A DNA stretch of 64,000 nt from an uncultured Chloroflexia bacterium (GTDB lineage Bacteria; Chloroflexota; Chloroflexia; Thermomicrobiales; JALYUS01), in assembly GCA_963847195.1 (NCBI GenBank), contig CAWJZC010000003.1:55968-119967 (forward strand), given 5' to 3'. The notes below the pieces were generated by a model. The model did no database searches and had not been told where the DNA came from. It saw only the letters and a list, made by a program, of their open reading frames with translations. How positions within the stretch are numbered: the first letter of the stretch is position 1; each line of letters starts with the position of its first letter. Positions 5,109 to 63,533 of this stretch are shown one piece after another. Both the position numbers and the translations under genes were made by a program.

Positions 5109-5214
5109 TTCAGTTGCCGGAGACTGTACGCGCGCGCGCCGCGTTCGTCAATCGCCGTGCTATCATCGCGGAGCATGGACATTTCCGCCGAAGTAGCACG
5201 AGGGGGAAGCCATC

Positions 5215-8082: not shown

Positions 8083-8130
8083 GAGCGACAGCCTTCTCCC
8101 GGCACGCAGTCCTCAGTCATCAGTTCTCAG
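7981..8130. repeat. Inverted heptamer arrays (AGGACTG)x4 and CAGTCCTCAGTCATCAGTTCTCAG bracketing the ATPase stop and the permease SD/start
   Basis: Arms lie at 7981-8010 and 8107-8130. The loop contains ATPase stop 8113-8115, the SD and ATG 8082. Confidence 0.85.
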
Positions 8131-11629: not shown

Positions 11630-13486
<1,857 letters not shown>

Positions 13487-22002: not shown

Positions 22003-22132
22003 GTTTTTACCCACCCCCAACCCCCTCCCGATACGGGAGGGGGCTTTTCTTGCTCCCCTTTCGGGCGCCCTCTGGGCGGCGCCCAGGAAGGGCTGGTGGT
22101 CTCCAGGCGCGTTTGCCCGACGCCATCGGCGT

Positions 22133-22748: not shown

Positions 22749-22976
22749 ATGCTCCCGTTGAGTCTGCCACCCGGTGCCTGGAGTGAAGAGGGCGACAGCT
22801 CACATGCAAGCGTCACCGCGCAGCTAAGTCCTGAGTCAACCCTCTTCCTCGACACACTAACATACAGGCTAAGGCCCGGGCAGGTTCGCGTAATCTGGCG
22901 ATTGGTTGCACAATAGAGAACCGTTGACGGGTGGGCGGGAGCGAGTGCAGCCGCGTGGAGAAGGGGGCCGGGGGCG

Positions 22977-36861: not shown

Positions 36862-37043
36862 TCGTGGCGACGTGTTTCGGAAACGGACTCACAGGCGCTC
36901 TGGCTGTGCTACCGGTAGCGCAGGCACGGCGCCCGCGTCCCCGAATGACGCGCTGAAGTCGTAAAGGTTCATCAGCCTGGCGCGGCGAGGTTCGGCAGGC
37001 GGGAGCCCGTCGCCACCAATACGACGTGCTGAGTGAGGAATCC

Positions 37044-37784: not shown

Positions 37785-37970
37785 AATGATCCTGCGCCGT
37801 GCGTGATGCCTCCTTTATGCCATTGAGCCAATACTTCAATGTGCGGGAGCCATAACCCATCAGGAGCGAGGCCGCCGGTGAGTAACCGGCGTTACCATTC
37901 CCGGTGGCGGGGCGCCCACCTGCCTCGGCAGGTTCAGAGCATTCCGAGGCACACGGCGGGGCGGGATCAC
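37785..37970 (+). ncRNA. Candidate structured RNA (about 185 nt; small RNA or holA 5' leader), identity unknown
   Basis: A long interrupted closing helix: GAUCCUGC/GCGGGAUC (37788-95 / 37961-68), GCCGUG/CACGGC (37796-801 / 37952-57), UGCCUC/GAGGCA (37807-12 / 37946-51), AUGC/GCAU, UUGAGCC/GGUUCAGA. Internal hairpins lie at 37873-37891 and 37903-37920. No ORF. It sits directly downstream of a strong promoter. Confidence 0.4.
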
Positions 37971-38008
37971 CCCACGAATGACTGAGTCGAGGACCGAGGA
38001 CTGAGACG

Positions 38009-44159: not shown

Positions 44160-45985
<1,826 letters not shown>

Positions 45986-46184: not shown

Positions 46185-49100
46185 ATGCAGCACGCACCGG
46201 ATGCGCCGTACGTCTTTATCTCCTATGCCAGCGCCGATCGCGAGCGCGTCCTGCCCCTCGTCGATGCCCTCGCGCGCGCCGGGGTAACGGTCTGGATCGA
46301 CCGCGAGGGCATCCACGGCGGCGCGAACTACGGCCGGGAGATCGCCAAGGCGATCAAGGGGTCGGCGGCGCTCATGCTCATGGCATCCTCGATGTCACTG
46401 GCGTCCCGGAATGTCAAGCAGGAGATCGCGGTGGCATGGGAGTACGAGCGCCCCTACCTGCCGCTGCTCCTCGAACCCGTCGCCATCCCGGATGACCTCA
46501 AATACTGGCTGACCGCCGCCCAGTGGATCGAGGTGCTGGACAGACCCGAAGTCGCGTGGCTGCCGCGGGTGCTCACCGCGCTCCAACCGCTCGGCGTCAT
46601 CCCAACGGCCCAACCGCGCGAGGAAGATCAACTCGCAGGCCGGGAACGCGAACTCGGGCTGCTCCGAGACAAACTCGCCGCCGCGAAAGCGGGCGAGGGC
46701 GGGCTGGTGCTGATCGGCGGGGAGGCGGGCGTGGGCAAGACGACGCTCGCCGATGCCGTGCTGCGGGAGGCGGCGTGGCAGGGGTTCGCCGTGCTGGAAG
46801 GGCACTGCTTCGACCTCGCCGAGACGCCGCCGTACGGGCCCTTCATCGACCTCTTCGCCCGTTTCCGTCCGTCGCCCTCCTCTCCCCCGCTGCCCGACGC
46901 CTTCAAGGAGCGGGGGACGGTCGGGGCGGTGCCCAGCCAGATGGCGCTCTTCGTGCAGGTGCAGGACTTCCTCGCCGCGCTGAGCGGGCAACAGCCCATC
47001 GCGGCGCTGCTCGATGATCTCCACTGGGCAGACCCCGCCTCGCTCGACCTGCTACGCTTCCTCGCCCGCTCGATCGGCGGACCTGCCGCTGCTGATCTTC
47101 GTCACTTACCGTTCGGACGAACTGACCCGCCGGAACCTGCTCTCTGCCCTGCTGCCCCAGTTAGCCCGCGAGGCGGGGGCGACACGCCTCGCCCTCGGCA
47201 GCCTCGACGACGATGCCGTACGGGCAGTGGTGAGCGCGCGCTACGGCTTGCCGGACGCCGATACCGACCGGCTCGCCGCCTATCTCCAATCGCGCGCCGA
47301 GGGGAACGCCCTTTTCGTCGGCGAACTCCTGCATTCGCTGGAAGAAAGCGGCCTCTTGACGCGCGAGGGCGACGTGTGGCGGCTCGCCGCCTTGACCGCG
47401 ACCGCCGTTCCCGCCCTGCTGCGGCAGGTCATCGACGCTCGGGTAGGCCGGTTGGACGACGAGAGCCAGCGACTGCTCGCGGTCGCCGCCGCCATCGGGC
47501 AGGAGGTGCCGCTCGCGGTCTGGGCGGCGGCGGGAGAGGCGGACGAGGAGACGCTGCTCGACCTCGCGGAGCGCGGGGAGGAGGCGCGGCTGCTGGTGGC
47601 CGGGAGCGACGGGGAGGCGGTGCGCTTCGCCCATGCATTGATCCGGGAAGCCTTGTACGAGGGGATCGCGCCGCTGCGCCGCGCCCGCCTCCATCGGGGC
47701 GTCGCCGACATCCTGCTCGCGCAGCCGCAGCCCGACCCGGATGCGCTCGTCCACCACCTGCGCGCCGCGCGCGACCCCCGGCTCGGCCACTGGCTTTTCG
47801 AGGCGGGCACGCGGGCGTTCCAGGCGTCGGCGCAGGCGACGGCGATCGCCCGCTTCGAGGAGGCGCTGCCCCTGCTCGCCGGGCCGGACGATGCGATGGA
47901 CCGCTACGTCGCGCTCTACCGCCTGACCATCCTGCGCGTCTCCGAACCCGCCGCCGTGGACGATGCGGAGGAGGCGGTGCGGGTCGCGGAGGAGATGGGG
48001 GACCGAGGTGCTCGCGGCGTGCGCCCTCTCGCGGCTCGGCTTCCTGCGGGGCTACCACGGAGACATCCCGACCGGGCTGGCGGAATTGGAGCGGGCGGCC
48101 CCGGTGCTCGCGGCCCATCCCGACTTCATCTTCCGCGCGGCCTCGGTGCCGGTCAAGCGCCGCCAATGTCGCCCGGGGCAACCTCGCCAGCGCGCTCACG
48201 GCCGTGGGTCGGCTGCACGAGGCGCGGGCGCTGGCGTCGGGGGTGGCGCTGCTGCAACAACGCCTACCTCGCGCTGATTGCGAGCGAGGGAATGCTCGGC
48301 CACCCCGAAGCGGCGCGGGCCGCCGCGCGGGCGTACATCGTCGCCCTCTCCGCCAAGGACATAGATGTCGGCTTCGCGTATCTCCTGGACTTGAACCATG
48401 CGCTCGTGCCCTATCATGCCGACGATGCGGGGGAGGTGCGACGGCTCGCCGCTGCGGCGGAGGCGCGGTTCGAGCGGATGGGGGAGGAGGCGCGCGGCTT
48501 CCCGCCGCGCCTCGCGCAGGTGGCTCCCTTGGTCCTCCATGGAGAGTGGGAGGAGGCGCTCATCTTCCTACCGTACGCCCGCCGCGTGCGCCATTTGTTG
48601 CAATCAAACATCTGGGCCGTCCCGCTGTATGCGGTCGTGGTGCGGGCGCGGGGGGAGCGGGGACTGGGGTGGGAGATGGTGCGCGAGATGTTCCCGGCGG
48701 GGCCGGGTACGGAGCCGGGGGCGATGCCGTTCCGGTACGCGCAGGCGATGCAGCGGCTGGGGGCGGCGCTGGCGCTGGACGAAGGCGACCAAGCGACGGC
48801 AAAAGAGTGGCTGGAGACGCACGATCGCTGGCTCGCCTGGTCGGGGGCGGTCCCGGGGCGGTCGGAAGGGCAGTTGCTATGGGCAGAGTACCACCGGCAG
48901 GCGGGCGACATGGAGAAGGCGAGGGAGCATGCCGAACGCGCTCATGCCATGGCGAACGAACCGCGCCAACCGCTCGCGCTGCTCGCCGCCCATCGACTGC
49001 TCGGCGAACTCGATGCCGACGCGGGCCGGTACGAGGACGCGGCCCAGCATCTCGATGCGGCGCTCGCCCTCGCGACCGCGTGCGAGGCGCCGTACGAGCG

Positions 49101-49263
49101 GGCGCTGACGCTGCTCGCGCTGGCCGAGCTGGGCGCCGCGACGGGGGAGACCGAGGAGGCGGTACGCCTGCTCACCGAGGTGCGGGCGATCTGCGGGCCG
49201 CTCGGCGCGACGCCCGCCCTCGCCCGCACCGATGCGCTGGCCGCCCGCATCGGCGTCACCTGA
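46185..49263 (+). pseudogene. TIR domain - P-loop STAND (AAA_16-like) NTPase - TPR-like repeat protein, about 1025 aa; four apparent 1-nt insertions (near 47075, 48005, 48155, 48262)
   Basis: TIR-like N-terminus YVFISYASADRERVLPLVDALARAGVTVWIDREGIHGGANYGREIAKAIKGSAALMLMASSMSLASRNVKQEIAVAWE. Then LAGRERELGLL..Walker A GGEAGVGKTTL, Walker B AALLDDLHWADPASLDLLRFL, an LLIFVTYRSDEL segment, and a helical-repeat C-terminus (..DMEKAREHAERAHAMA..GRYEDAAQHLDAALALA..). Frames step 0,1,2,0,1. Confidence 0.75.
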
Positions 49264-49575
49264 CGGCCCCCGAGCGGCATAGGAGCGAAGGCTCAAGGCC
49301 GGTCGAGGATCTTGAGAGAGGTTGTACGAGATTCACGACGCCGTTCTGATCGTTGTTGTCGTCCGCGTTGGGCACCGCCGCGAGGTAGAGCGGTAGAGAA
49401 CGCCATGCCGAGTCAGAACACCTCGCGCGAATCGGCGTATCGGGGCTGCCTGCCTCTCGTCATTACCGCTCATGCGACGGGTCGCATGACCTTTCCCGAT
49501 CAAAGGATGCGGGATCATCGTATACACGATTCGCCCCGTCCCCGGCAGCGCGCGTCACCATCGAAAGAACGGCGC

Positions 49576-50409
49576 TCACGGTGCCGGTTCGAAGGCGGCG
49601 CAGAGCATCCCGAAATAGGTCGGCGCTTCGTAGGAGAGGAACTCGCCCCGCCACGCATCGCCGATCGCGCCGGAGAGCATCAGCATCTGCCAGAATGAGT
49701 CCGCCTTCGCCGCGGCGACCAGCGCCGGGTCGATCTCCTGCACGCCGGTGAGATGGTTTGCTTTGATCAGATCCACGACATGATTGTCGTACTCGGCGGC
49801 GGCGGGATCGAAGCCGTAGGGCCCGTCCGCGAGGTGGGCGTGGCCGTGGTCCGAACTGGCGATCATCGCGACGCGCTTGCCGGAGGCCGCCGCCAGCGCC
49901 GCCAATGCCTGCCCGGCGCGCACATGATCCGCCGGTGAGTGATCTCGCGCCGGGCTGATGACGACGATCGGCACCTGCGGCTCCGACCGGCCACCCATGA
50001 ACCAGAGGGGGATCAAGACTCCCCAGTCCATCGGCGCGGTCGCGCCCTTCGCATCGTTGCCGCCATAGCTGATGCCGACCGCCGGGACATCCGCCGCGTT
50101 GAGGGCATCGATCGCGGCGCGCGCCAGATCGCGGTCGGTCGGGCAGTGCAACTCGATCTTCTCTTTCGTCCAGTCGGAGAGCGACCCGGCGAGCGTGCCC
50201 GCCGTGACGACCGCCATCGCTCCCTCCACATGGACATTGTGCGGCGTGAAGATGATCGTCGCGTCCGGGCGGGCGGCGGCAAAGCGGCGGCCAAGGTCCG
50301 CCATCGCTTCCTGCGTCTTCGTGGCGAGGCCGCGCTCTTCCGGCGCGCACGCCTCGGGGATCGCCAGGCTGCCGTGCGGCGCGATCGCGGCAAAAACCAA
50401 CCCACTCAT
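49576..50409 (-). CDS. Class III extradiol dioxygenase subunit B-like (LigB-family) protein
   Basis: MSGLVFAAIAPHGSLAIPE...TIIFTPHNVHVEG...MIASSDHGHAH. SD AAGGAGGAGG precedes ATG 50409. Confidence 0.6.
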   Translation of the reverse strand: MSGLVFAAIAPHGSLAIPEACAPEERGLATKTQEAMADLGRRFAAARPDATIIFTPHNVHVEGAMAVVTAGTLAGSLSDWTKEKIELHCPTDRDLARAAIDALNAADVPAVGISYGGNDAKGATAPMDWGVLIPLWFMGGRSEPQVPIVVISPARDHSPADHVRAGQALAALAAASGKRVAMIASSDHGHAHLADGPYGFDPAAAEYDNHVVDLIKANHLTGVQEIDPALVAAAKADSFWQMLMLSGAIGDAWRGEFLSYEAPTYFGMLCAAFEPAP

Positions 50410-50483
50410 ACTGCCTCCTCCTTGCTACACAACGGACGATAATGCCCGGAGTATAGCAGCATCGGCGCACGCCGGGCGGGAGG

Positions 50484-50597
50484 AAACCGGGAGAATCGCG
50501 GAGGGCGCCGAGAGAAAGAGGATTGACGGTGCGTGCTCCAATCTTCTCTCCGTATCTCTCCGTGACCTCTGCATCCTCCTCGGTTCTCCCCGGTTTC
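50484..50597. repeat. Long imperfect palindrome, GAAAC-terminated (divergent member of the CACAGAG element family)
   Basis: GAAACCGGGAGAATCGCGGAGGGCGCCGAGAGAAAGAGG ... CTTCTCTCCGTATCTCTCCGTGACCTCTGCATCCTCCTCGGTTCTCCCCGGTTTC. Confidence 0.7.
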
Positions 50598-50669
50598 AGG
50601 TTGCGCGGCGGTGATGCGGGCGGGACGGCGTGGTCATCGCCGCGCGATATGGGGTGCGCCAGATGCCGG

Positions 50670-50996
50670 TTATGCCTTCGGGGGCTGATAGGTCAGTTCG
50701 CCTGCCTTGCGCATACCGGCCATCGCTTCTTCCACCGTGAGAAGTGGCGTCGTCTTGTAGTTGCGGAGGTGGCCGGGGGAGACGATCGCGAACGCGACGG
50801 CGGTCGCGGCGGTTGCGTCGGGCAGTTCCGCGATCGCGACGATGTCGGCGTCTCCGAGCGCATAATAGAAGCATTCCAGCCGCCCGCCCAGTTTCTCCAT
50901 CAACGCGACGATGCCGGGTGTGCGATCCTGCGGGTTCTTCGCGAGTGTCGCGAGCGCCTCCGCGGTATAGCTCGCCTGAATAAGGTAACGTGTCAT
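50670..50996 (-). CDS. GYD-domain protein
   Basis: MTRYLIQASYTAEALATLAKNPQDRTPGIVALMEKLGGRLECFYYALGDADIVAIAELPD. SD AGGGAGGGGA precedes ATG 50996. Confidence 0.75.
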   Translation of the reverse strand: MTRYLIQASYTAEALATLAKNPQDRTPGIVALMEKLGGRLECFYYALGDADIVAIAELPDATAATAVAFAIVSPGHLRNYKTTPLLTVEEAMAGMRKAGELTYQPPKA

Positions 50997-51153
50997 CGGT
51001 TCCCCTCCCTTTTCTCTCCAGGTGTCCCTGCCCGTGCGGCGAGTATAGCAGGAGAGGGCCGAGCATGACCCGCGATGCGTCACAGAACGGGTATCTGTCC
51101 GTTTCTATCAGTAGCGAATGGCACGGGCGTCATTCTTCGGGAAGGGAGCGAGG

Positions 51154-51738
51154 ATGCCACGGATTGCCTGGGTGGAGGATGACGCGGCTGAGGGGGCGAC
51201 GGCGGAAGGGTTCGCGCGCGTCCGGGCCGCCTCGTCGAGCGGGCAGGTCGCGGAGATCATGCGGACGATGAGCGTGCGCCCGGATTTCATGGAGGCGATT
51301 CTCGCCGCGTCGCGCCTCCATTTCTCGGACGGCGCGCTGACCCGCGTGCAGCACGAGATGATCGCCTCGTACGTCGCCGCGCTCAATCGCTGCCACTACT
51401 GACTGACCAGCCACACCTGGTTCCTGCAGTTGCAGGGCGAGCAGTACAGTGCGGCGGCGCGGGCCCTCCGCGATGGCGATCTGGCGGCGGCCCCGGTCAC
51501 GCCCGCCGAGCGGCTCCTGCTGGAGTTCGTCGGCACCCTCACCGAGCACGCCTACCGGATCACCGATGAGCAGGTGCAAGGGCTGCGCGACGTCGGCTGG
51601 ACGGACGCGCAGATCGCCGAGGCGGTCTATGACGGCGCGCTTTTCAATCTTTTCGTCCGTCTCGCCGACGCCTTCGATATCCACCCGCCGCCCGTGATGG
51701 ACGCCGACGGGATACCGAAGGCGGTCACCGGCGGGTAG
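51154..51738 (+). CDS. AhpD-like / carboxymuconolactone-decarboxylase-family peroxidase-related protein with in-frame TGA 51400-51402 (candidate selenocysteine)
   Basis: ORFs 51118..51402 and 51430..51738 share one frame and are separated only by one TGA. The joined sequence reads LTRVQHEMIASYVAALNRCHY-TGA-LTSHTWFL, so TGA sits where the family motif N-x-C-x-Y-C-x-x-x-H has its second Cys. Hairpins lie at 51406-51421 and 51423-51436, just 3' of the TGA. Confidence 0.6.
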
Positions 51739-51878
51739 CGGGTTGGCGTGCGGGAACATCGGGTACTTGCGCGACGTACTATACTGCGAAGGATGACCCG
51801 CGATGCGGGGCTTCTGGGGCATGGCGCGTGGGTGATGCGCCGCGAAGATCGGTGGTGTAGGGAAGGAATGGGGAACCA

Positions 51879-52109
51879 ATGGATCCGATGCAAAGTGGAC
51901 AGGTCAGCGACAAGACATTCACGACGACGCTCATCCTGAGCATTCTCCTCGGCAGCCTCGGTGTCGACCGTTTCTATCTGGGCTACACGAAGCTCGGTAT
52001 CCTCAAGTTAATCACACTCGGCGGCTGCGGCATCTGGTCGATCATCGATATCATCCAGATCGCCCAGGGGAAGATGCCGGACGCGCAGGGCCGTCCGCTC
52101 GCCCGCTAA
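51879..52109 (+). CDS. TM2-domain membrane protein
   Basis: LILSILLGSLGVDRFYLGYTKLGILKLITLGGCGIWSIIDIIQIAQG. Confidence 0.8.
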   Translation: MDPMQSGQVSDKTFTTTLILSILLGSLGVDRFYLGYTKLGILKLITLGGCGIWSIIDIIQIAQGKMPDAQGRPLAR

Positions 52110-52126
52110 CAGGGACGGGAGTTCGG

Positions 52127-52169
52127 GGTTCGGGGGTCGCGACGGCAATGCCGTCCCGACCCCCGAACC
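52127..52169. terminator. Bidirectional stem-loop between convergent genes
   Basis: GGTTCGGGGGTCG..GACGGC AAT GCCGTC..CGACCCCCGAACC gives about 19 bp of pairing. It fills the 62-nt gap between stops 52109 and 52172. Confidence 0.55.
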
Positions 52170-52171
52170 GC

Positions 52172-53263
52172 TTAAGGAAGGTATCGCCGCTCGTAGCGCG
52201 TCTCGCGGGGGGCGCGTGCGTCGATGCCCGGCAGGGGCGCGAAGGGGGCGTGCGGCTCGGTCTGATACCAGTAGGCGGTGCTGGCGATGTCGTCCCCCCG
52301 GTCGTTCGCGTGGCCGTGCTCGATGGTCACGCGAATGGCCGTGTCGAAGAGTACCGGGTCCTCGATATGATAGCGATAGACGGTGATTTTGCCGCCCCAG
52401 TTGGCCGCGCCGGGGAGGAGAATGCCGTGGTACGGCGCGACATAGAACTCCGACGGGCACCATGAGCAGCCGTAATAATCCTCCGTGCCCGTGCCGACGA
52501 GTGACGGCACGGCCTCGCCGTCGATGAAGATCATGTCGTCGCCCTCGCCATACCAGGACCAGTCCGCCGCCAGCCCCGCGCCCTCCTGGCCGGCGGTGTG
52601 GCGATGGACATTGTCGTAATCGAGGTGGCAGCCGACGTAATGCCCCTTGCCGGTCGCCTCCATGATGAGGTAGTTGCCCGCGCCTGTCAGGTTCTTGCCG
52701 TCGTCCTCGTTGTGCGGCTCCGCCCGCGCCGGATTCTCCCGGTGCCACCAGGCATGGAACCTGCCCAGGCCCTCGTCTAACGCGACGTATTCCTCGTAGT
52801 CCACGTAGAAATAGAATGAGCGGCAGTCCACTGGGCCATCGTTGGTGATCGTCACGCGCGCCCCCTGCGCGAAGGGCATCGGGAAGTAGCAGTTGAGACC
52901 CCGGCCGTCCTGCGGGCTCATCGCGAGCATCGGCGTGGCGAAGTTGCGCGTCATCGCGTGGCCCATGCCGAAGAAGTCGCCGACCGGCACTTCCACGGAG
53001 GGGGACGCCTCGCCGTCCCAGTACATCCGCAGCGCGAGGTTCCGTAGATGGAGCGGGTCGTCCGAGGCGATGGTGAACCAGAGATGCGTGATGCAGCCCG
53101 CGCCGCCGATCTCCGCCAGCGTCGCCGTCTCGCCCGCCCGGATGGTGATGAAGTCGCGGTTCCCGCCCGTCCGGTCCCACGACGAGGCCCGACGGCGCTT
53201 CGCGTCTCGCAGCCGCGCCAGCCCGCGCAATGACGCCCCGCCGAATGTTGGTAGCCCGCTCAC
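52172..53263 (-). CDS. DUF2961-family protein (glycoside hydrolase family 172-like)
   Basis: LARLRDAKRRRASSWDRTGGNRDFITIRAGETATLAEIGGAGCITHLWFTI...LRMYWDGE..VPVGDFFGMGH...NCYFPMPF. GTG 53263 with SD AAGGAG is preferred over the TTG 53338 of the ORF track. Confidence 0.7.
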   Translation of the reverse strand: MSGLPTFGGASLRGLARLRDAKRRRASSWDRTGGNRDFITIRAGETATLAEIGGAGCITHLWFTIASDDPLHLRNLALRMYWDGEASPSVEVPVGDFFGMGHAMTRNFATPMLAMSPQDGRGLNCYFPMPFAQGARVTITNDGPVDCRSFYFYVDYEEYVALDEGLGRFHAWWHRENPARAEPHNEDDGKNLTGAGNYLIMEATGKGHYVGCHLDYDNVHRHTAGQEGAGLAADWSWYGEGDDMIFIDGEAVPSLVGTGTEDYYGCSWCPSEFYVAPYHGILLPGAANWGGKITVYRYHIEDPVLFDTAIRVTIEHGHANDRGDDIASTAYWYQTEPHAPFAPLPGIDARAPRETRYERRYLP

Positions 53264-53389
53264 CCCACGCTCCTTTGCTATCTGTCCGTTGGCCGTCTCG
53301 GAGGGTACTGTACCACCCGCCTTGCCCCCGACCCGCAATCCTCGTATCCTCCCCGTGGGTGTACCGAAGCAAGAATTGCGGAATGGGGT

Positions 53390-54961
53390 ATGACAGTCAT
53401 GCGGCGATCTCTGCGCCTCCGGTTATCGGTGATCCTGCTTGTTGCCCTGATGGGCATGCTGCTCGACACCACCACGGCGGGGTACGCCGCCCCGGTCGGC
53501 ATCGCCGACGCGGGCACGACGTTCGCGGCGGATGGCGGGCCGGTGCCGCGCTTCGAGGCCGCCGCCTGCCCGTGGAAACTGCCGACGGGGCAGGTGGAGG
53601 GGCAGACGGTGAAGTGCGGCTTCGCTGTCGTGCCGGAGGTACATCAGAACCCGACCGGCCCGACGATCCGGCTGCCCGTCGCGGTCTTCAGGAGCACATC
53701 GAGCACCCCCGCGCCGGACGCAACGATCTATCTGCAAGGGGGCCCCGGCGCGCCGGTCGGTGACTTCATCACCGGATTCCTCGAAGGCCACCTCGATCGC
53801 TACACGGCGGCGCGCGACCTGATCGTCTTCGATCAGCGCGGCATCGGCTTCGCGCAGCCGAGCCTCGACTGCCCGGAAGTGACGGCGGCGGACCTCGCGG
53901 ACATCGGCGCCCAGACCAGCCAGACGCAGAAGACGAACGACGACATCGCCGCGACGTTCGCCTGCCGGGACCGCCTGATGAAGCAGGGCATCGACCTCGG
54001 CGCGTACACGAGCGCAGAGGGTGCGGCGGATGTCAACGACATCCGCGCCGTGCTCGGCTACTCGCAACTGAACCTGCTCGGTGTCTCCTACGGCACGCGC
54101 CTCGCCCTGACGATCATGCGGGACTTCCCGAACGCGGTGCGGAGCGCGGTGCTCGATTCGTCCGTGCCGCTGCAAACAAACATCGTCGAAGACAACGGCG
54201 TCAACTTCAAACGTTCGTTCGATCTCTTCTTTGCCGCCTGTGCGGCGGATGCCACCTGTACGAGCAAGTATCCGGCATTACAAGCGGACTACGCGGCCGC
54301 TGTCGCGCAACTGAACGGCCAGCCGATCACGACAACCGCGACGGATCAGACGACGAACAAGACGGTGCCCGTCGTCGTTGATGGGATCGAGCTCACATCC
54401 TTGATTTCGGAATTGCTGTACCTCAATGGCGATATCACGCGCATCATTCCTCCCTTGGTCGAGGAGATCAAGGCGGGCCAGACGACGATACTGGACGCCG
54501 TATTGAACGCATTCGGCCCGATCGTTGGCGCCGATATCAACGTCGGCGCCTATTACTCGGTCATCTGCTCCGAGGAGGTGCCGTTCAACAATCGCGACCG
54601 CGCCGCCGCCGCCGCGCAATCGCTCACGCCCGATCTGCAACAGATCTTCGCCAGCGATGTCCGCCAGCATTTCGATGTCTGCGCGCAATGGCCCGTCCAT
54701 GCGATCAACCCGGTGGAGACGCAAGCCGTGACGAGCGATTTGCCCGCGCTGGTGCTCTCCAGCGATAACGACCCCGCCACGCCGCCATCGTACGGCACGC
54801 AGGTGGAGCAGACGCTCTCGCATGGCTTCCTCATCACCTTCCCCGGTATCGGGCACTCCGTCCTCGGCAACGGCGGCGATTGCGGCCTCAGCACGATCTT
54901 CGCCTTCATCGACAACCCGACAACCGGGCCGCCGACCGATTGCGTCGGGAAGCGGGGGTGA
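53390..54961 (+). CDS. Secreted alpha/beta hydrolase, TAP-like (tripeptidyl aminopeptidase family)
   Basis: Signal peptide MTVMRRSLRLRLSVILLVALMGMLL. YLQGGPGAP, nucleophile elbow GVSYGT, and a C-terminal TAP-like segment LVLSSDNDPATPP..GHSVLG. Confidence 0.7.
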   Translation: MTVMRRSLRLRLSVILLVALMGMLLDTTTAGYAAPVGIADAGTTFAADGGPVPRFEAAACPWKLPTGQVEGQTVKCGFAVVPEVHQNPTGPTIRLPVAVFRSTSSTPAPDATIYLQGGPGAPVGDFITGFLEGHLDRYTAARDLIVFDQRGIGFAQPSLDCPEVTAADLADIGAQTSQTQKTNDDIAATFACRDRLMKQGIDLGAYTSAEGAADVNDIRAVLGYSQLNLLGVSYGTRLALTIMRDFPNAVRSAVLDSSVPLQTNIVEDNGVNFKRSFDLFFAACAADATCTSKYPALQADYAAAVAQLNGQPITTTATDQTTNKTVPVVVDGIELTSLISELLYLNGDITRIIPPLVEEIKAGQTTILDAVLNAFGPIVGADINVGAYYSVICSEEVPFNNRDRAAAAAQSLTPDLQQIFASDVRQHFDVCAQWPVHAINPVETQAVTSDLPALVLSSDNDPATPPSYGTQVEQTLSHGFLITFPGIGHSVLGNGGDCGLSTIFAFIDNPTTGPPTDCVGKRG

Positions 54962-55024
54962 CCCTCTCCCCCGGCCTGCTCTCGTACAGAGCTATCGTGG
55001 CACATATCTGAAACATATCGTGAC

Positions 55025-55822
55025 CTATCTGCGATGGCTCCGTACGAGGGGGGCCGAGGGTGAGGAAACGAACGCGCCGTCCTGCAATATGGGCGCCGTC
55101 TCGCTCGCGTCGAGATGCGCGGCAATCTCAACATCGCTCGCGTAACCGAGGGCGGCGAGTTCCCGGCCCGAACTGCACGCGGCGATGAAGGGGAGCAGTG
55201 CGGCTGCGGCCGCCGCATAGACGGCAATGGCAGCGATCGCCTCCGGCGAGGGCGCGGTCGGACGGAGGGCGGCGAGGATCGCGCCCGCGCCGACCATGTC
55301 CTCGATTGCGGGGCGGAGCGGCCGGTCGTCGCCCTCCCACTGCTCCCCCGCCGCAACCACCGTGACAGTTTGACCGAGCGCGCGGGCGGTCGCGGCGACG
55401 GCTCGCGCATTGCGCACGCACCCGGCGATCACGGCGGCACCGGAATCGGCGGCGATGGTGGCGAGCGTCGAGCCGTTCGGGGAGGGGAGGACAAGCCGCG
55501 TCCCCGGCGAGAGCGTGTCCAACGAGGCCGGGGAGAGCGAGTATGGCCGCTCCGCCGTCGTCTCGCCCCGGCTGACCGCCAGCATTGCCCCGTTCTCCCG
55601 CGCGAACGCCTCCGCTGACGCATCTCGCCACCGATAGGGGAAGACCGTCGCCCCGTGCGCCACCGCGACATCCACGCAGGTGCTAAAACTGAGCACATCG
55701 ACGATCACGACGACATCGGAGAGGGGCGCGAGTCGCCGTATGCCCTCCACTCCCCACTCGAAGCGCGCGTCGCAGCCGGATTGGTCGTAGTACGCGGTTG
55801 CGGGGCCGTGCTGTTCCATCAT
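55025..55822 (-). CDS. 2-phosphosulfolactate phosphatase (ComB)-family protein
   Basis: VVIVDVLSFSTCVDVAV...LPSPNGSTLA...IEDMVGAGAIL resembles ComB-family motifs. Confidence 0.5.
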   Translation of the reverse strand: MMEQHGPATAYYDQSGCDARFEWGVEGIRRLAPLSDVVVIVDVLSFSTCVDVAVAHGATVFPYRWRDASAEAFARENGAMLAVSRGETTAERPYSLSPASLDTLSPGTRLVLPSPNGSTLATIAADSGAAVIAGCVRNARAVAATARALGQTVTVVAAGEQWEGDDRPLRPAIEDMVGAGAILAALRPTAPSPEAIAAIAVYAAAAAALLPFIAACSSGRELAALGYASDVEIAAHLDASETAPILQDGAFVSSPSAPLVRSHRR

Positions 55823-55884
55823 CGGATTCCTTCTGAAATTGGCGAAGGGCGCACGGCTGTGCGCCCCTACAGTGTGACTTGCTT

Positions 55885-55932
55885 CCCCCCTCTCCTTTGG
55901 TTGTCAGCAAAGGAGAGGGGCCGGGGGTGAGG
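55885..55932. repeat. C/G-run hairpin repeat
   Basis: CCCCTCTCCTTTGGTTGTCAGCAAAGGAGAGGGGCCGGGGGTGAGG, nearly identical to the element at 42599-42646. Confidence 0.85.
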
Positions 55933-55937
55933 TTCCC

Positions 55938-57395
55938 CTACAGGCCGACCGTGACCGCCTTGACCTCCATGAATTCCTCGATGCCCATGCTGCCGTTCTC
56001 GCGGCCGAGACCGCTCTCCTTGAAGCCCCCAAAGGGGATCTGCGGCGCGGTGGGCAGCGGGTCGTTGCAGCCGACGATGCCGTACTCCAGCCCTTCCGCG
56101 ACGCGGAAGACGCGGCCAACGTCGCGCGTGAAGAAGTAGGCGGCGAGGCCGAACGGCGTGTCATTCGCCAGGCGGATGCCTTCCTCCTCGCTGTCGAACG
56201 GCACGATCGGCAGCGCGGGGCCGAAGGTCTCGTCGTGGAGAATCTTCGCGTCCGGCGCGACATTGGCGAGGATCGTCGGCTCGTAGAAGAACCCCTTCAG
56301 GTGACCGTTCGTATCGGCGGGCTTGCCGCCGGCGAGCACCGTCGCGCCGCCCTTCAGTGCGTCCGCAACCTGATCCTCGACCTTCTGGAAGCCCCGCTCG
56401 TCGATCATCGGGCCGACTTTGGTATCGGCATCGAGGCCATTGCCGACCTTCAGCCCCTTCGCCAGTTCCGCGACGCGCTTCGAGAACGCCTCGACGATCG
56501 GGCGCTGGACATAGAGACGGTTGGTGCAGATACAGGTCTGGCCCGCGTTGCGGAAGCGCGAGGTGATCGCGCCCTGCGCGGCCTGCTCGATGTCCGCGTC
56601 GTCGAAGACGATCATCGGCGCGTGGCCGCCGAGTTCGAGCGAGACCTTCTTGACCGTCCCCGCCGCCATCGCCATCAGTTCCTTGCCGACCTCGGTGCTG
56701 CCGGTGAAGGTGATCTTGCGGACGATGGCGCTCTCCGCCAGCACCTTCGCCACTTCTCTGGCGGACTTGCTCGTGACGATGTTGACGACGCCCGGCGGGA
56801 AGCCCGCCTCGTCGAACGCCTTGATGATCTCCAGCGCGACGAGCGGCGTCGCGGACGAGGGCCGGAGGACGACGGTGCAGCCGGCCGCCAGCGCGGGCGC
56901 GATCTTACGCGTAATCATCGAGTGCGGGAAGTTCCACGGCGTGATCGCCGCAACGACGCCGACCGGCTGCCGGAAGGTGAGGACGCGCTTGCCCGCCGTC
57001 GGGCTGGGGACGACCTCGCCGTAGGTGCGGCGCGCCTCCTCCGCGTTCCAACGCACGAAGCCCGCGCTGATCGTCGCCTCGCCGCGCGATTCCGCCAGCG
57101 GCTTGCCATTCTCCTCGGTGAGGATGCGGGCGTGCTCCTCGATGCGGCTCTTGAGGATATCGAAGGTCTTGTGCAGCAGTTCGGCGCGCTCGTCCGCCGG
57201 GCGCTTCGACCACGCCGGGAAGGCATCGGCGGCCGCCTGCACCGCCGCTTCCGTCTCCGCCGCGCCGCCGTCCGCCACCTCGGCGAGCAGTTCGCCGGTC
57301 GCGGGGTTATGGACCGGGAAGGTCTTGCCGCCTGCGGCATCCTGCCACTGGCCATTCAGATAGAGTTGATAGGTCTTCGTCGCGGTCGTCGCCAT
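55938..57395 (-). CDS. NAD(P)-dependent aldehyde dehydrogenase, succinate-semialdehyde dehydrogenase-like
   Basis: Intact 485-aa ORF with ITPWNFP, FTGSTEVGK, the catalytic Glu motif SLELGGHAP and the catalytic Cys motif RNAGQTCICTNR. SD AAGGGAGA precedes ATG 57395. Confidence 0.85.
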   Translation of the reverse strand: MATTATKTYQLYLNGQWQDAAGGKTFPVHNPATGELLAEVADGGAAETEAAVQAAADAFPAWSKRPADERAELLHKTFDILKSRIEEHARILTEENGKPLAESRGEATISAGFVRWNAEEARRTYGEVVPSPTAGKRVLTFRQPVGVVAAITPWNFPHSMITRKIAPALAAGCTVVLRPSSATPLVALEIIKAFDEAGFPPGVVNIVTSKSAREVAKVLAESAIVRKITFTGSTEVGKELMAMAAGTVKKVSLELGGHAPMIVFDDADIEQAAQGAITSRFRNAGQTCICTNRLYVQRPIVEAFSKRVAELAKGLKVGNGLDADTKVGPMIDERGFQKVEDQVADALKGGATVLAGGKPADTNGHLKGFFYEPTILANVAPDAKILHDETFGPALPIVPFDSEEEGIRLANDTPFGLAAYFFTRDVGRVFRVAEGLEYGIVGCNDPLPTAPQIPFGGFKESGLGRENGSMGIEEFMEVKAVTVGL

Positions 57396-57547
57396 GCTGA
57401 TCTCCCTTCGTGCGTACCGTACCCTCATATGGTTGAGAACACCGTGCATCGTCCCGCATTCCATCGGGAGCGTCAACGGCGAGAGAACCTCACTCTCCCG
57501 GCACCCTGGGGGCAGGTGAGAGGGGCTGAGGGTGAGGTTTTTTGCTC

Positions 57548-57576
57548 TTGCAGCGACTCCCCACGCGGGGTATACT
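57548..57576 (+). promoter_or_regulatory. Sigma-70-type promoter of the nusA operon (TTGCAG - 17 nt - TATACT)
   Basis: TTGCAG 57548-57553, 17-nt spacer, TATACT 57571-57576, preceded by a T-run. It lies about 200 nt upstream of nusA. Confidence 0.6.
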
Positions 57577-57602
57577 TTCAGTTGAACTCGTGCGCTGGCG
57601 GC

Positions 57603-57630
57603 AACGTGGGTTCTTTGACCCACGTTTTTC
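57603..57630 (+). terminator. Intrinsic terminator / attenuator in the nusA leader
   Basis: AACGTGGGT-TCTTTG-ACCCACGTT followed by TTT(C): a 9-bp stem plus U-tract about 30 nt after the predicted start site and 150 nt before the nusA ATG. Confidence 0.6.
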
Positions 57631-57779
57631 ATGCGCGAGAGCAGGGAGCCTCTCCGGCACGAGCCGGGCTCTCCATGCCGCCGGTACGGGGAACCACCCG
57701 CACGAAACTCGCGCGGGCAAGGGAATACGTAGCGGACGGGGCGATAGCGCCGCCGTCCGAATTGGGAGGGATACCAGCA

Positions 57780-59336
<1,557 letters not shown>

Positions 59337-59359
59337 CGCCCGAGCGGAAGGAGACCCCT

Positions 59360-59812
59360 ATGCCCGCGAAGGCGACGCTTGAAACAACCGGGAATTCCCC
59401 CTCCCCTGACCCTTTCCCCGTTCCGGGTGAAGAGAACCATGACGGGAATGGAGCCTCGAGTCCTTCTCCTCCTCCCGCATCGGGAGGGGGCCGAGGGGTG
59501 GGCAATCCTCCCCGTAAGAAGCGCAAGGGATTGAAACCCCGTCACATTCCGCAGCGGACGTGCATTGTGACGCGGCAGACGGGCGACAAACGCGGACTGG
59601 TCCGCATCGTCCGCACCCCCGAAGGACGGGTTGAGGTGGACGCCACCGGCAAGAAGAATGGCCGGGGCGCGTACCTCACCGCCGACCGCGCGATCTGGGA
59701 GCGTGCCCTGAAGGGCAATCTCCTCGCCCGCGCGCTGAAATGTGACATCAATGCGGACGACGCGGCGACGCTTCAGGCGTATGCGGAGACGCTTCAGAGG
59801 ACTGAGGACTGA
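59360..59812 (+). CDS. ylxR: YlxR/RnpM-family (DUF448) RNA-binding protein with repeat-derived N-terminal extension
   Basis: IPQRTCIVTRQTGDKRGLVRIVRTPEGRVEVDATGKKNGRGAYL. ATG 59360 has SD GGAAGGAG. Codons ~10-45 translate C/G-run repeats. TGA 59810-59812 lies in the heptamer array. Confidence 0.8.
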   Translation: MPAKATLETTGNSPSPDPFPVPGEENHDGNGASSPSPPPASGGGRGVGNPPRKKRKGLKPRHIPQRTCIVTRQTGDKRGLVRIVRTPEGRVEVDATGKKNGRGAYLTADRAIWERALKGNLLARALKCDINADDAATLQAYAETLQRTED

Positions 59813-59865
59813 GGACTGCGGGCCGTGTGGGGCTGGCTCAGTCCTCAGCACTCGGCCCTCAGTCC
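59798..59865. repeat. Heptamer-armed hairpin (GAGGACT / AGTCCTC type)
   Basis: GAGGACTGAGGACTGAGGACTG ... CTCAGTCCTCAGCACTCGGCCCTCAGTCC, between ylxR and infB. Confidence 0.85.
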
Positions 59866-59903
59866 TTGATAATGCCCTCACATCAAATGTGGGGGAAAGG
59901 AGT

Positions 59904-61844
59904 ATGACAATGCCAGGAAAACCTCCTCGTGGTGGATTTCGACCCGGACCGCCCCGCACGGGCGGCGGCCCGCGACCCGGTGGCGGGCGACCGGGCGGCC
60001 GCCCCGGTAATCGCGGCCCGAACACGAATGGTGCCGGGGGCGGCGAGCGGATCGCGCAGGTACGTCGCGGCCCGGTGCGCCCCGAAGAGCCCGTCATGCT
60101 GCCCGCTGTCATTAGCGTGGGCGACCTCTCCGACCGCTTGATGCTCTCGCCCACCGAGATCATCAAGGCCCTGATCGGCGTCGGCGTCTTCGCCAATATC
60201 AATCAGCAGATCGACTTCGCGACCGCCGAGAAAGTCGGCGCCGCACTGGAGATCCAGGTGGCGCCCGCTGAGCAGACGACAGACGCCGAGGGGATCACCG
60301 CCACCGTCGATACCCGCGCGACGACCGGCGGCACGGATACCCGCCCGCCGATCGTCACGATCATGGGGCATGTCGATCACGGTAAGACGAAGTTGCTCGA
60401 CGCCATCCGCGAGACGAAAGTCGCGGAGGGCGAGGCGGGCGGCATCACCCAGCGCATCGGCGCCTATCAGGTCGAGGTGCAGGGGCGGAAAATCTCCTTC
60501 CTCGATACCCCCGGCCATGAGGCGTTCACCGCCATGCGGGCGCGCGGCGCGCGGGCGACCGATATCGCCATCCTCGTCGTTGCCGCCGATGACGGCGTCA
60601 AGCCGCAGACGCTGGAGGCGATCTCGCACGCCAAGGCGGCCAATGTGCCGATCATCGTCGCGATCAACAAGATCGACGCCATCGGCGCGAATGTCGACCG
60701 CGTCAAGGCGCAACTCGCCGAGGCGGACGTGACGCCGGAGGATTACGGGGGCGACACGCCGACTGTCGAGGTCTCCGCGAAGGAGAAGCTCGGCATCGAC
60801 GACCTGCTCGACACGATCCTGCTCGTCGCGGACATCGCCGAGCTGAAGGCGAACCCGCACGTCCCGGCGACCGGCGTGATTATCGAGGCGAACCGCGACC
60901 CGGCGCGCGGCATCACCGCGACGGTGCTCATCCAGAATGGCACCTTGAATCAGCGGGATAGCGTCGTCGTCGGCTCGACCTATGGACGCATCCGGGCGAT
61001 GCAGGACGACCGGGGCCGCAAGGTGCGCCGGGCGCTCCCCTCGATGCCGGTGGAGATCATCGGCCTGGAGGACATGCCGGAGGCGGGCGACATCTTGCAG
61101 GCGTACGCGGACGACCGCGAGGCGCGCACGATCGCCGATCAGCGGCGCTTGCAGAAGCAGGCATCGTCGTTCTCGGACGAGCGGTTGAGCCTCGAAAATG
61201 CCCTGCGCAATGTCCAGACGGGCGGCACGAAGGAACTGCGGCTGATCCTCAAGGCGGCGGAGCAGGGCTCGCTCGGCGCGATCCAGAACGCGCTCAACAA
61301 GCTCGATGATCCATCGGTGCAGATCAACGTCATCCATACCGGCGTCGGCGCGATCGGCGAGTCCGATGTCTCGCTCGCCTCGGCGTCGCAAGCCATCATC
61401 ATCGGCTACAACGTCCGCCCGGACGTGGCGGGCAAGCGGGCGTCCGAGGCGCGCGGCGTCGATATCCGCTTCTACGATGTCATCTATCACCTCGTGGACG
61501 ACGTGAAGGCGGCGATGACCGGGATGCTCGACCCGATCGAGCAGGAGACGACGGACGGCTACGCCGAGGTGCGCGAGATCTTCAAGTTGCCGAACAAGAT
61601 CGTCGCGGCGGGCCTCTATGTCACGGACGGCGTCATCCGGCGCAACGACCGGGTGCGCGTGCTGCGCAACGGTGCGGTCGTCCACGACGGCACGGTGACG
61701 ACGCTGAAGCGCATGAAGGACGACGCGCGCGAGGTGCAGGCGGGCTACGAGTGCGGCCTCTCCCTCGATGGCTTCAACGACTACGAGACCGGCGACACGC
61801 TCGAGTTCTATCACAAAGAACAGATCGCGGCGCGGCTCGCGTAG
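59904..61844 (+). CDS. infB: Translation initiation factor IF-2
   Basis: ATG 59904 follows GGGGGAAAGGAG. There is a Gly/Pro/Arg-rich N-terminus and the GTPase motifs [26 protein letters not shown]. Intact to TAG 61842-61844. Confidence 0.9.
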
Positions 61845-61862
61845 CGAGAAGGAATGAGCGAT

Positions 61863-61924
61863 GAGGACTGAGGACTGAGTAGGGAACTTCTCCACTCAGT
61901 CCTCAGTCCTCAGTCCTCAGTCCT
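61863..61924. repeat. Heptamer-armed hairpin (GAGGACT / AGTCCTC type)
   Basis: GAGGACTGAGGACTGAGT, a 14-nt loop, then ACTCAGTCCTCAGTCCTCAGTCCTCAGTCC, between infB and rbfA. Confidence 0.9.
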
Positions 61925-61940
61925 TCCCCTGGAGGGGAAG

Positions 61941-62378
61941 ATGGCGAAATCCAACAGGCGCATTGAGCAAGTCAATGACTTCCTCAGGAACGAGGTGGCG
62001 CAACTGATCCGGCAGGAGCAGGACGAGATGCGCCTCAAGCTCGTCAGCGTGACCGAGGTACAGACGAGCCCCGACCTGCGCCATGCGAAGGTCTTCATCA
62101 GCACGCTCGGCGGTGAGAAGGAGCGCGACGCGGCGGTCGCGACGTTGCGGCGGCACGCGAGCCATCTGCGGCACCTGCTCGCGCCCCGTATCACCTTCCG
62201 CTCCGTCCCCTCGCTCGATTTCCGCCCCGATTCCTCGCTGGAAGCGGGCGCGGAGATATTGCGCGCCCTGAACGAAATCGAACGCGAGCGGGCCGTGAAC
62301 CCGCCCCACCTCGACGACGAACCGGCCCCGGAGCCGGCCGAGAAAGCGCCTAATCCGCGTGCGCGTAAACGGAAGTAA
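61941..62378 (+). CDS. rbfA: Ribosome-binding factor A
   Basis: RRIEQVNDFLRNEVAQLIRQE..LVSVTEVQTSPDLRHAKVFIS...LRRHASHLRHLLAPRITFRSVPSLDFRPD. Confidence 0.85.
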   Translation: MAKSNRRIEQVNDFLRNEVAQLIRQEQDEMRLKLVSVTEVQTSPDLRHAKVFISTLGGEKERDAAVATLRRHASHLRHLLAPRITFRSVPSLDFRPDSSLEAGAEILRALNEIERERAVNPPHLDDEPAPEPAEKAPNPRARKRK

Positions 62379-62379
62379 C

Positions 62380-62499
62380 GAGTGCTGAGTGCTGAGTGCT
62401 GAGAAAGGATAAGACGATTGAGCAATATGCCGAATGCCAGGAGTGCGCAGGGGGCGGGTCTCTCCCCACCCAGCACTCAGCCCTCAGCACTCAGCACTC
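62380..62499. repeat. Heptamer-armed hairpin (GAGTGCT / AGCACTC type) with a 67-nt loop
   Basis: GAGTGCTGAGTGCTGAGTGCTGAG (62380-62403) and CAGCACTCAGCCCTCAGCACTCAGCACTC (62471-62499). The loop holds the first candidate start codons of the next gene. Confidence 0.9.
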
Positions 62500-63533
62500 T
62501 TTCCCGTTCCGGCCCGACCTGGGCCGAGGCCGACCTCGACCGCGCGTGGGATGCGATGGCGCACGCCACGCATGTCCTGATCCCCACGCACGTCAATACG
62601 GACGGCGACGGTATCTCGTCATCGCTGGCGATGGCGGAGATTGTGCGCGTCGCGAACCCGGCGGCGCGGGTGACGACCTGCATCCCGGACGGCAAACTGC
62701 CGCCGATGCTCGATTTCATCCCCGGCGTGCAGACGATGGCCCGCTACACGGGGCTGCCGCTGCCGCTCGATGATGTTGACCTGATTATCGCGCCCGATGT
62801 GCCGGAAGTGCGCCGGTTCGGGCCGCTCTACGAGGCGTATCAATCCCTTTTCTCCGGCACGCCGGTCATCATCATCGATCACCATGTGCCGCGCGGCGAG
62901 GAACCGGCGATCGCGCGCTTCATCGACACGAGCGTCATCGCCGTCGATTCGCTGATCGTGCGCCTCTGCGGGCAGTGGGGCGTGCCGATCACCCCGCTTC
63001 TCGGGACGCTGCTCCTCATTGGCATCAGTTCGGACAGCAGTTCGTTCATGCGCGTGGAGGGGAATGGCGCGCCGACTTTTCGGATGCTCGCCGACCTCTG
63101 CGAGGCGGGCGCGGACTACGCCGGGGTGATGGATGGCCTGCGGCGCAGCAAGACGCCGGGGATGGTGGCCGTCTGGGGCGCGCTGCTCGCCCGCGCGACC
63201 TGGGTGCAGCACGTCCTCTGGACGGAGGTGACGCCGGGTCTGCTCGTCGAGTTGGGCGCGGACGAATCGGCGGGCGAGGGAGTTGTCAACTGGATCGTCG
63301 GCACGCGCGGCGTCGGTGCGGCGGCGATCTTCTATCAAGGGCAGGAGAGTTGGCGCGCCAGCCTCCGTTCGACGACGCCCGCCGTCGATGTCGCTGCCTT
63401 CGCTCGACGCTACGGCGGCGGCGGGCATGTCATGGCGAGCGGTTGCACCTTCGCGGGCGGCATCCCCGAGCGCGACGCCTTCCTTGCCGCCCTTGTCGAC
63501 TATACCGAAGCGGGTCTCGCGCGGCGTAGATAG
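62418..63533 (+). CDS. nrnA: DHH/DHHA1-family phosphoesterase (NrnA-like oligoribonuclease / pAp phosphatase)
   Basis: VLIPTHVNTDGDGISSSLAM (DHH motifs I-II), IIIDHH, and the DHHA1 motif GGGHVMASGCTF. The start is uncertain: TTG 62418 and ATG 62427 lie in the hairpin loop, and ATG 62559 is a later option. Confidence 0.75.
   Translation: MSNMPNARSAQGAGLSPPSTQPSALSTLSRSGPTWAEADLDRAWDAMAHATHVLIPTHVNTDGDGISSSLAMAEIVRVANPAARVTTCIPDGKLPPMLDFIPGVQTMARYTGLPLPLDDVDLIIAPDVPEVRRFGPLYEAYQSLFSGTPVIIIDHHVPRGEEPAIARFIDTSVIAVDSLIVRLCGQWGVPITPLLGTLLLIGISSDSSSFMRVEGNGAPTFRMLADLCEAGADYAGVMDGLRRSKTPGMVAVWGALLARATWVQHVLWTEVTPGLLVELGADESAGEGVVNWIVGTRGVGAAAIFYQGQESWRASLRSTTPAVDVAAFARRYGGGGHVMASGCTFAGGIPERDAFLAALVDYTEAGLARRR

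Follow-up and report, generated by a model that had tools for sequence, protein, structure and literature searches.

A candidate selenocysteine UGA codon with a putative in-ORF SECIS hairpin in an AhpD-like gene of the Thermomicrobiales

Background

Does the TGA triplet at positions 51400-51402 end a gene, break one, or encode selenocysteine (Sec)? The question is raised by a stretch of 64,000 nucleotides from an uncultured bacterium of the Thermomicrobiales (Chloroflexota), analysed here in its full length and called the window. Two open reading frames (ORFs), 51118..51402 and 51430..51738, are listed there in the same frame, and only this TGA stands between them. Both ORFs are present as the first-pass annotation, made from the letters of the window, had described them. 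That annotation proposed that the in-frame TGA makes the joined gene, a member of the AhpD-like family, a candidate selenoprotein. The proposal is supported here by the conservation of the TGA among relatives, by purifying selection on both sides of the codon and by a downstream hairpin that fits the bacterial Sec insertion sequence (bSECIS) model. From these sequence comparisons we estimate at about 0.9 the probability that the UGA encodes Sec by means of a SECIS element lying inside the ORF. Sec as the inserted residue and the presence of selA, selB, selC and selD in the genome are inferences, and so is the biochemical role proposed below. The coordinates of the gene, its motif and its RNA elements are collected in Table 1.

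Table 1. Positions of the AhpD-like gene, its signature codons and the RNA elements around the in-frame UGA
Feature	Position	Strand	Basis
Shine-Dalgarno-like GGGAG, 5 nt upstream of ATG 51154	51144..51148	+	inferred by reading the sequence
AhpD-like coding sequence (CMD family, TIGR01926-type), complete, 194 residues, UGA codon 83 as predicted Sec	51154..51738	+	ORFs, profile and structure matches, homologue termini
Glu68 codon of the AhpD signature E-x11-C-x-x-C/U-x3-H	51355..51357	+	Glu in 41/41 TGA-type orthologues
Cys80 codon, first residue of CxxU, presumed resolving thiol	51391..51393	+	Cys in 40/41 orthologues
In-frame UGA, predicted Sec codon, residue 83	51400..51402	+	TGA in the window and 41 loci, TGC/TGT in Cys forms
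First stem-loop of the first-pass annotation, ACCAG-CCACAC-CUGGU	51406..51421	+	folds in the window, pair probability 0.76-0.86
His87 codon of CxxU-x3-H, between the UGA and any possible restart codon	51412..51414	+	His in 41/41 orthologues
Candidate bacterial SECIS hairpin	51422..51437	+	covariation, synonymous constraint, folding
Stop codon TAG	51736-51738	+	sequence

Reading frame, family and fold

The region 51154-51738 of the forward strand forms a single frame whose sole internal stop is TGA 51400-51402; translated across this stop it reads ...ALNRCHY*LTSHTWFLQLQG..., and the product with the TGA read through is 194 amino acids long. ATG 51154 is most likely the real start, because homologues begin with MPRIAW or MARIAW and the window protein begins with MPRIAW; its C-terminus matches theirs as well. 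With a GC content at third codon positions (GC3) of 0.86 and 0.89, respectively, the two halves of the gene are both coding-like (the sequence is 66.5% GC). TGA is an ordinary stop in the window, where it ends most of the ORFs supported by GC3.

The two ORFs, once joined, had been read as a full-length protein of the carboxymuconolactone decarboxylase (CMD)/AhpD-like type, and profile and structure searches confirmed this. The joined product matches the Pfam CMD family PF02627 (1e-9, 38.5 bits against a cutoff of 23). Its best NCBIfam match is TIGR01926, 'peroxidase-related enzyme', which covers residues 6-178 and profile positions 5-175 of 178. Among the entries of the Protein Data Bank (PDB), 3C1L, 2PRR and 2OYO were matched with E-values of 1e-13 to 1e-15, and 6K40 and 2PFX were also matched.

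The alignment with the PDB entries sets ...NHCYYCLTAH... opposite ...NRCHY[TGA]LTSH..., the TGA being aligned with the second Cys of N-x-C-x-Y-C-L-x-x-H. The placement of the TGA at the second Cys of the family motif N-x-C-x-Y-C-x-x-x-H, proposed in the first-pass annotation, is borne out by alignment with 25 full-length Cys homologues, in which the Cys aligned with the predicted Sec is invariant and the motif's first Cys is variable. In the window protein the motif reads E68-x11-C80-H-Y-[TGA]83-L-T-S-H87; E-x11-C-x-x-C-x3-H is the proton-relay and CxxC signature of AhpD. The equivalent of Cys80 is Ser in a single TGA-type orthologue (L040) and Thr in some Cys-type homologues; two Cys-type homologues, L055:657-1247 and L056:1001-1594, have Thr as the motif's first Cys (T-H-Y/F-C).

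The fold was examined on a model of the Cys homologue P0001, which is 72% identical to the window protein. The model has the all-helical AhpD fold with a predicted local distance difference test score (pLDDT) of 95.5 and places CxxC at the start of helix 81-93. Its template modelling (TM) score is about 0.8 to 2PRR, 6K40 (AhpD of D. radiodurans), 3C1L and 2OYO.

Conservation of the TGA among relatives

A genome scan in which one genome was kept per species yielded 46 loci. The same codon is TGA (C-x-Y-TGA-L-S-x-H) in 41 of these 46, with a frame that is open and similar on both sides, and among the close orthologous loci the proportion is 41/43. The TGA-type orthologues of these 41 species-representative genomes have an amino acid identity of 62-96%. 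Their genomes are labelled Thermomicrobiales, other Chloroflexota, Ktedonobacterales and Dormibacterota, to which are added single metagenome-assembled genomes (MAGs) labelled Actinomycetes, Actinomycetota, Latescibacterota, Clostridia, Thermodesulfobacteriota, Verrucomicrobiia and Nitrosopolaris. The codon is TGC in two Pseudonocardiaceae loci and TGC or TGT in four further Cys forms. The homologue alignment, named as a check in the first-pass annotation, thus places Cys codons or TGA at this position, and similarity continues downstream of it. The closest relative, L001 (a Thermomicrobiales MAG, contig JBPCMC010000031.1), is about 90-93% identical in DNA and has the LigB/GYD/TM2/DUF2961 neighbourhood in common with the window.

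The protein search retrieved about 28 full-length Cys-type homologues with 53-72% identity, together with more than 90 clusters of fragments of 106-119 amino acids, 71-91% identical, which begin just past the position of the TGA. Such fragments are what gene callers leave when they take a Sec codon for a stop. In L049 (GCA_013112725.1, the assembly of L007 as well) and L050, both long contigs of Chloroflexota, the public calls consist of two 'hypothetical' ORFs (9650-9979 and 10001-10321 in L049; 9731-9979 and 10001-10321 in L050), only the C-terminal piece being clustered in the protein database.

Some individual loci deserve a separate mention. The hairpin described below is essentially identical in L032, L014, L038, L009 and L015, which come from MAGs labelled Nitrosopolaris (an archaeon), Clostridia, Verrucomicrobiia, Latescibacterota (a complete chromosome, OZ252149.1) and Thermodesulfobacteriota, respectively; this spread across labels reflects either mis-binning or horizontal transfer. 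The Dormibacterota orthologue of the L040:3247 region reads N-R-S-R-Y-TGA, with Ser for the first Cys, and one stem pair of its hairpin is mismatched by a G-to-A change; this copy may be decaying or a variant. Finally, a Rokubacteria MAG (L046:3070) encodes an AhpD-like protein with 28% identity and an in-frame TGA at the second Cys (NQCHT-TGA-VRSH), followed by a different downstream structure.

Translation past the TGA

Selection on the two halves was compared in the 41 TGA-type genes. The mean pairwise proportion of synonymous differences (pS) is 0.61 upstream and 0.62 downstream, and the ratio of the nonsynonymous to the synonymous proportion (pN/pS) has values of 0.37 before and 0.32 after the TGA and hairpin. 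By these comparative measures the downstream half is translated, purifying selection being as strong after the TGA as before it. From the TGA to the hairpin there are five codons (L-S-S-H-T), whose amino acids are conserved and whose synonymous sites are free to vary, with CTG, CTC or CTA for Leu, AGC, TCG or AGT for Ser, and CAC (21 genes) or CAT (20 genes) for His87. All five precede any possible restart codon. Since the codons after the TGA are conserved in amino acids and free at synonymous sites, a pseudogene is excluded and two separate polypeptides are disfavoured.

A conserved hairpin downstream of the TGA

The candidate SECIS element is the hairpin UCCUGC-AGUU-GCAGGG, in which CCUGC (51423-51427) is paired with GCAGG (51432-51436) around the loop AGUU (51428-51431) and the stem is extended by the pair U51422.G51437. 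In a 66-nt alignment starting at the TGA, columns 19-38 show little or no variation (TGG-YT-CCTGCAGTTGCAGG-G), and the flanking third positions vary. The hairpin is near-invariant in all 42 TGA genes, that of the window and the 41 others. The RNAalifold consensus contains one helix only, identical to that of 51422-51437, with 99.2% of the cells paired.

Synonymous variation is reduced at this place. The seven hairpin codons have a pS of 0.157, compared with 0.61-0.64 elsewhere, and the only degenerate columns of the 180-codon alignment with zero synonymous variation are Phe TTC (37/37), Gln CAG (41/41) and Leu TTG (41/41), all located in the hairpin. This Leu, at 51430, is TTG in 41/41 genes; the share of TTG among the other Leu codons of the same genes is about 8%. 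The Cys forms provide a comparison. The peptide FLQLQG is encoded as TTT TTA CAG CTG CAA GGG in L054 and as TTC CTC CAG CTA CAA GGC in L055, which destroys the hairpin in both, and in L056 the peptide itself is changed and the hairpin is gone. Overall the hairpin is lost in 3 of the 6 Cys forms, remnants being found in L053, L022 and L024. Half of the Cys forms have thus dropped the hairpin, L054 and L055 by synonymous changes, and therefore the constraint at the RNA level goes with the TGA. These sequence patterns show selection on the hairpin as RNA.

The hairpin was compared with the bSECISearch consensus as published (PMC13188914, Fig. 2). The consensus requires an apical loop of 3-9 nt, and that of the candidate has 4 nt (AGUU); for an upper stem of 4-16 bp, the candidate has 5-6 bp (five Watson-Crick pairs and the U.G pair). 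A G is expected in loop positions 1-2, usually followed by G or U, and the loop reads A-G-U-U, invariant in 42 sequences. The spacing from UGA to loop is 25 nt (51403-51427) for an accepted range of 16-37 nt, and the minimum free energy of the hairpin alone is -8.3 to -8.5 kcal/mol for a threshold of -7.5 kcal/mol or lower. The hairpin at 51422-51437 thus agrees with all the published criteria, and its pair probability is about 0.99.

The first-pass annotation had pointed to two stem-loops in the zone where a SECIS is expected. Both are present, and the second is the conserved hairpin just described. The first, at 51406-51421, did not hold as a conserved element: it was found in the window and L001 only, its 5' arm is not kept in other relatives, and it lies outside the consensus fold. 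Judged by this lineage-specific distribution, it is probably not part of the functional element.

Near-matches to CCTGCAGTTGCAGG with two mismatches occur at 3770, 10875, 16072, 38080 and 46952 on the forward strand. Including the gene's own site and the reverse complement of that site, the window contains 7 near-matches with at most 2 mismatches, compared with 0.23 expected from dinucleotide shuffles. Apart from the gene's own site, none is accompanied by an in-frame TGA in an open frame, and they were rejected as SECIS elements. Their excess is likely a bias of codon composition.

Proposed mechanism

We propose that 51154-51738 encodes a single AhpD-like thiol/selenol oxidoreductase of 194 residues. 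SelB carrying Sec-tRNA(Sec) would decode UGA 51400-51402 as Sec, and the element recruiting it would be the short SECIS hairpin inside the coding sequence, with its apical loop at the above distance from the UGA. By analogy with the AhpD family, Sec83 would stand at the N-terminus of a helix as the attacking nucleophile, in place of the invariant second Cys, and Cys80 would resolve the intermediate as a selenenylsulfide. The proton relay would consist of Glu68 and His87, and a peroxiredoxin or a hydroperoxide/disulfide would be the likely substrate.

Two more far-reaching ideas were considered. The UGA and mini-hairpin might be decoded without selenium in the soil clade, for instance as Cys with the help of a SelB paralogue and a tRNA-Cys resembling tRNA-Sec. 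Separately, a cassette made of the gene and its invariant 16-nt SECIS might have been passed horizontally from phylum to phylum (Chloroflexota, Dormibacterota, Actinomycetota and others). We regard it as improbable that either holds; cassette transfer, if true, would mean that a SelB-SECIS pair works across phyla.

Evidence against Sec insertion and alternative readings

Several results weigh against Sec insertion in an AhpD-like enzyme. With U replaced by C, the protein scores 79.1 bits against TIGR01926, which is 2.7 below the curated cutoff of 81.8. Covariation in the hairpin is thin because the hairpin hardly varies: it amounts to a single event, a compensatory change from C-G to U-A in L006 and L007, at the pair C51424-G51435 of the window, that proceeds through synonymous CTG to TTG and CAG to CAA replacements, and one pair of the hairpin is broken in L040. 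The folding energy of the whole region is no better than that of shuffled sequences (z = 0.27 and -0.86), a result to be expected when a short element lies in coding sequence rich in GC, where thermodynamics alone is uninformative. None of selA, selB, selD and tRNA-Sec was detected in the window or at the 46 related loci (ARAGORN and Rfam on the window, ARAGORN on the loci, and tblastn of E. coli SelA, SelB and SelD), and no sel genes were found within 10 kb on either side of the gene in L049 and L050. Finally, no public sequencing run contains the exact sequence, the best having 12% of its words.

Candidates recovered in these searches were set aside. The only tblastn matches, weak ones of E. 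coli SelB and SelD, correspond to IF-2 (59739-61844), another GTPase (~44199-44675) and a ThiL-like AIRS_C protein (3891-4805) beside a thiamine pyrophosphate (TPP) riboswitch. Two other TGA-parted pairs in the same frame are no selenoproteins: at 8113-8115 on the reverse strand an ABC ATPase is followed by a separate permease gene, and at 36954-36956 on the forward strand the downstream frame is full of stops. A molybdopterin oxidoreductase in the 20-kb contexts of L049 and L050 is an uninterrupted ORF of 715 amino acids.

The alternative that survives best is that the UGA and hairpin insert a residue other than Sec, either Cys delivered by a tRNA-Sec-like tRNA-Cys(UCA) with a SelB paralogue or an amino acid introduced by near-cognate read-through, the protein being recoded but selenium-free in both cases. 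Recoding systems made of a tRNA-Cys and SelB exist in some bacteria. The comparative data establish recoding and read-through and are silent on the identity of the residue, and no Sec-synthesis genes occur in the sequences examined; however, the lack of sel genes in 64 kb of a multi-megabase genome is uninformative. Moreover, the standard mark of a selenoprotein is a Sec/Cys pair at a redox CxxC combined with a canonical bSECIS, and the AhpD-like family is catalogued as a CxxU selenoprotein (PMC13188914, PMC1088965). We hold insertion of another residue to be very unlikely.

A split gene was considered next. The TGA would be a real stop, and a polypeptide of 82 amino acids would assemble non-covalently with a second one of about 102 amino acids restarting at TTG 51430, the conserved region around this TTG acting as a restart signal. 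The invariance of TTG 51430 (41/41) and the annotation of two ORFs in public records can be read in this way. However, the nine codons from TGA to TTG, among which is the invariant His87, are conserved in amino acids with free synonymous variation and hence are translated in frame, and no Shine-Dalgarno sequence precedes TTG 51430. The double change in L006 and L007 preserves the pairing and not a linear motif. A split would also remove the invariant catalytic Cys position, and the Cys forms are single polypeptides. This makes the split gene a highly improbable reading, and a Sec-encoding UGA followed by a SECIS hairpin remains the preferred one.

The last alternative is that TGC or TGT was changed to TGA, either by the decay of a pseudogene or by an error of sequencing or assembly, for which frameshift-like splits elsewhere in the window (rpoD at 11634-13486 and the PepF-like fragment 36175-36861) could speak. 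It is effectively excluded: 41 genomes assembled independently have the same TGA, as do relatives' contigs from soil metagenomes and metatranscriptomes, and the downstream half is under purifying selection.

The relatives' contigs that cover the region come from metagenomes of soil and sediment and from a single run labelled RNA-Seq, and they have many substitutions in the gene; among the variants listed from them, none falls at 51400-51402 or in the hairpin. As to assembly quality, the first-pass annotation had placed the gene in a stretch of 15.7 kb without indel problems; no frameshift-like splits were seen in the ORFs scanned in 46984-63533. Elsewhere, an rpoD-like primary sigma factor is split over the overlapping frames 11634-12593 and 12542-13486 on the forward strand, the first encoding regions 1.1/1.2 and the second regions 2-4. 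The split points to a frameshift in an essential gene, probably an assembly indel. The ORF 36175-36861 on the forward strand reads as the C-terminal part of a larger gene, whose N-terminal part must be in another frame, and looks like a frameshift-like break; from its translation we take it to be possibly an oligoendopeptidase-F/M3-type peptidase (PepF-like).

Other features of the window

On the reverse strand, a TPP riboswitch (5006-5111, 68 bits) lies upstream of the ThiL-like AIRS_C protein (3891-4805), which has no detectable N-terminal AIRS domain, and a TenA/THI-4 family gene (1582-2556) is found further downstream; the arrangement looks like a thiamine operon. The window also contains a 6S RNA (SsrS) at 37786-37971 on the forward strand, a full-length Rfam match of 64 bits, and an ORF for a transposase of the IS110 family (DEDD) at 21999-22799 on the reverse strand.

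Relation to known systems and significance

The AhpD-like CxxU selenoprotein family (COG2128) was first reported in 2005 from the Sargasso Sea metagenome, with 27 sequences (PMC1088965). 'AhpD-like 1' (COG2128, CxxU) was later counted at 299 genes in the Global Ocean Sampling (GOS) data, among the most abundant selenoproteins there (PMC2398784), and AhpD-like selenoproteins are also present in sequenced genomes (PMC1794560). Reviews list 'AhpD-like protein, TIGR01926, CxxU' (PMC13188914) and COG2128 (PMC9312934). In Chloroflexota, Sec use is documented for Dehalococcoidia (PMC4918011, PMC13326102) and in phylum counts (PMC1794560); a literature search yielded no specific report on Thermomicrobia or Dormibacterota.

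The window gene resembles the AhpD-like family of COG2128 (YciW/TIGR01926) in its CMD/AhpD domain, in the predicted Sec at the second Cys (CxxU), in a bSECIS inside the ORF with a G in a small loop, and in its widespread Cys homologues. Known members come from marine plankton, Deltaproteobacteria and Clostridia, whereas the window copy comes from a high-GC, soil-type relative in the Thermomicrobiales, and in its clade the hairpin is unusually invariant and minimal, with 16 nt. The Cys-type AhpD structures (2PRR, 2OYO, 2PFX, 3C1L and 6K40, and the more distant M. tuberculosis AhpD 1KNC) share the all-helical fold and E-x11-C-x-x-C-x3-H, N-x-C-x-Y-C-L-T-x-H being aligned residue for residue. They have Cys where the window gene has UGA, and identity is only 25-28%.

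Two other models were compared. NF041238, the AhpD_rel_CFYUT '(seleno)protein' (Sargasso 'hypothetical protein 1'), is alike in having CxxU in an AhpD-related domain. The window protein was rejected as a member, with 64 bits against a cutoff of 175, a match to profile positions 150-334 of 357 only, and C-H-Y-U-L instead of C-F-Y-U-T. The E. coli fdhF-type SECIS and the bSECISearch model share with the candidate a hairpin within the ORF 3' of the UGA, a small loop with G then U, the spacing and the folding energy (PMC13188914). In contrast to the fdhF-type element, the candidate has a conserved stem of 5-6 bp only, and no conserved lower stem or bulged U was detected in it.

The window gene thus fits the known AhpD-like CxxU family, with a marginal, sub-cutoff TIGR01926 score, and knowledge of selenoprotein families or of Sec decoding is unchanged. 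The mildly new points are how broad and uniform the soil clade is, its near-invariant minimal SECIS and the systematic mis-annotation as two ORFs. More than 90 public orthologue clusters are mis-annotated, as two hypothetical fragments or as the C-terminal piece only, and correct annotation would give back a full-length redox enzyme. As a natural example of a minimal SECIS the clade is a clean one, the constraint being visible in a local collapse of synonymous divergence and the Cys forms serving as an internal control. If the UGA is read as we propose, this would imply Sec use in soil lineages of the Thermomicrobiales, other Chloroflexota and Dormibacterota.

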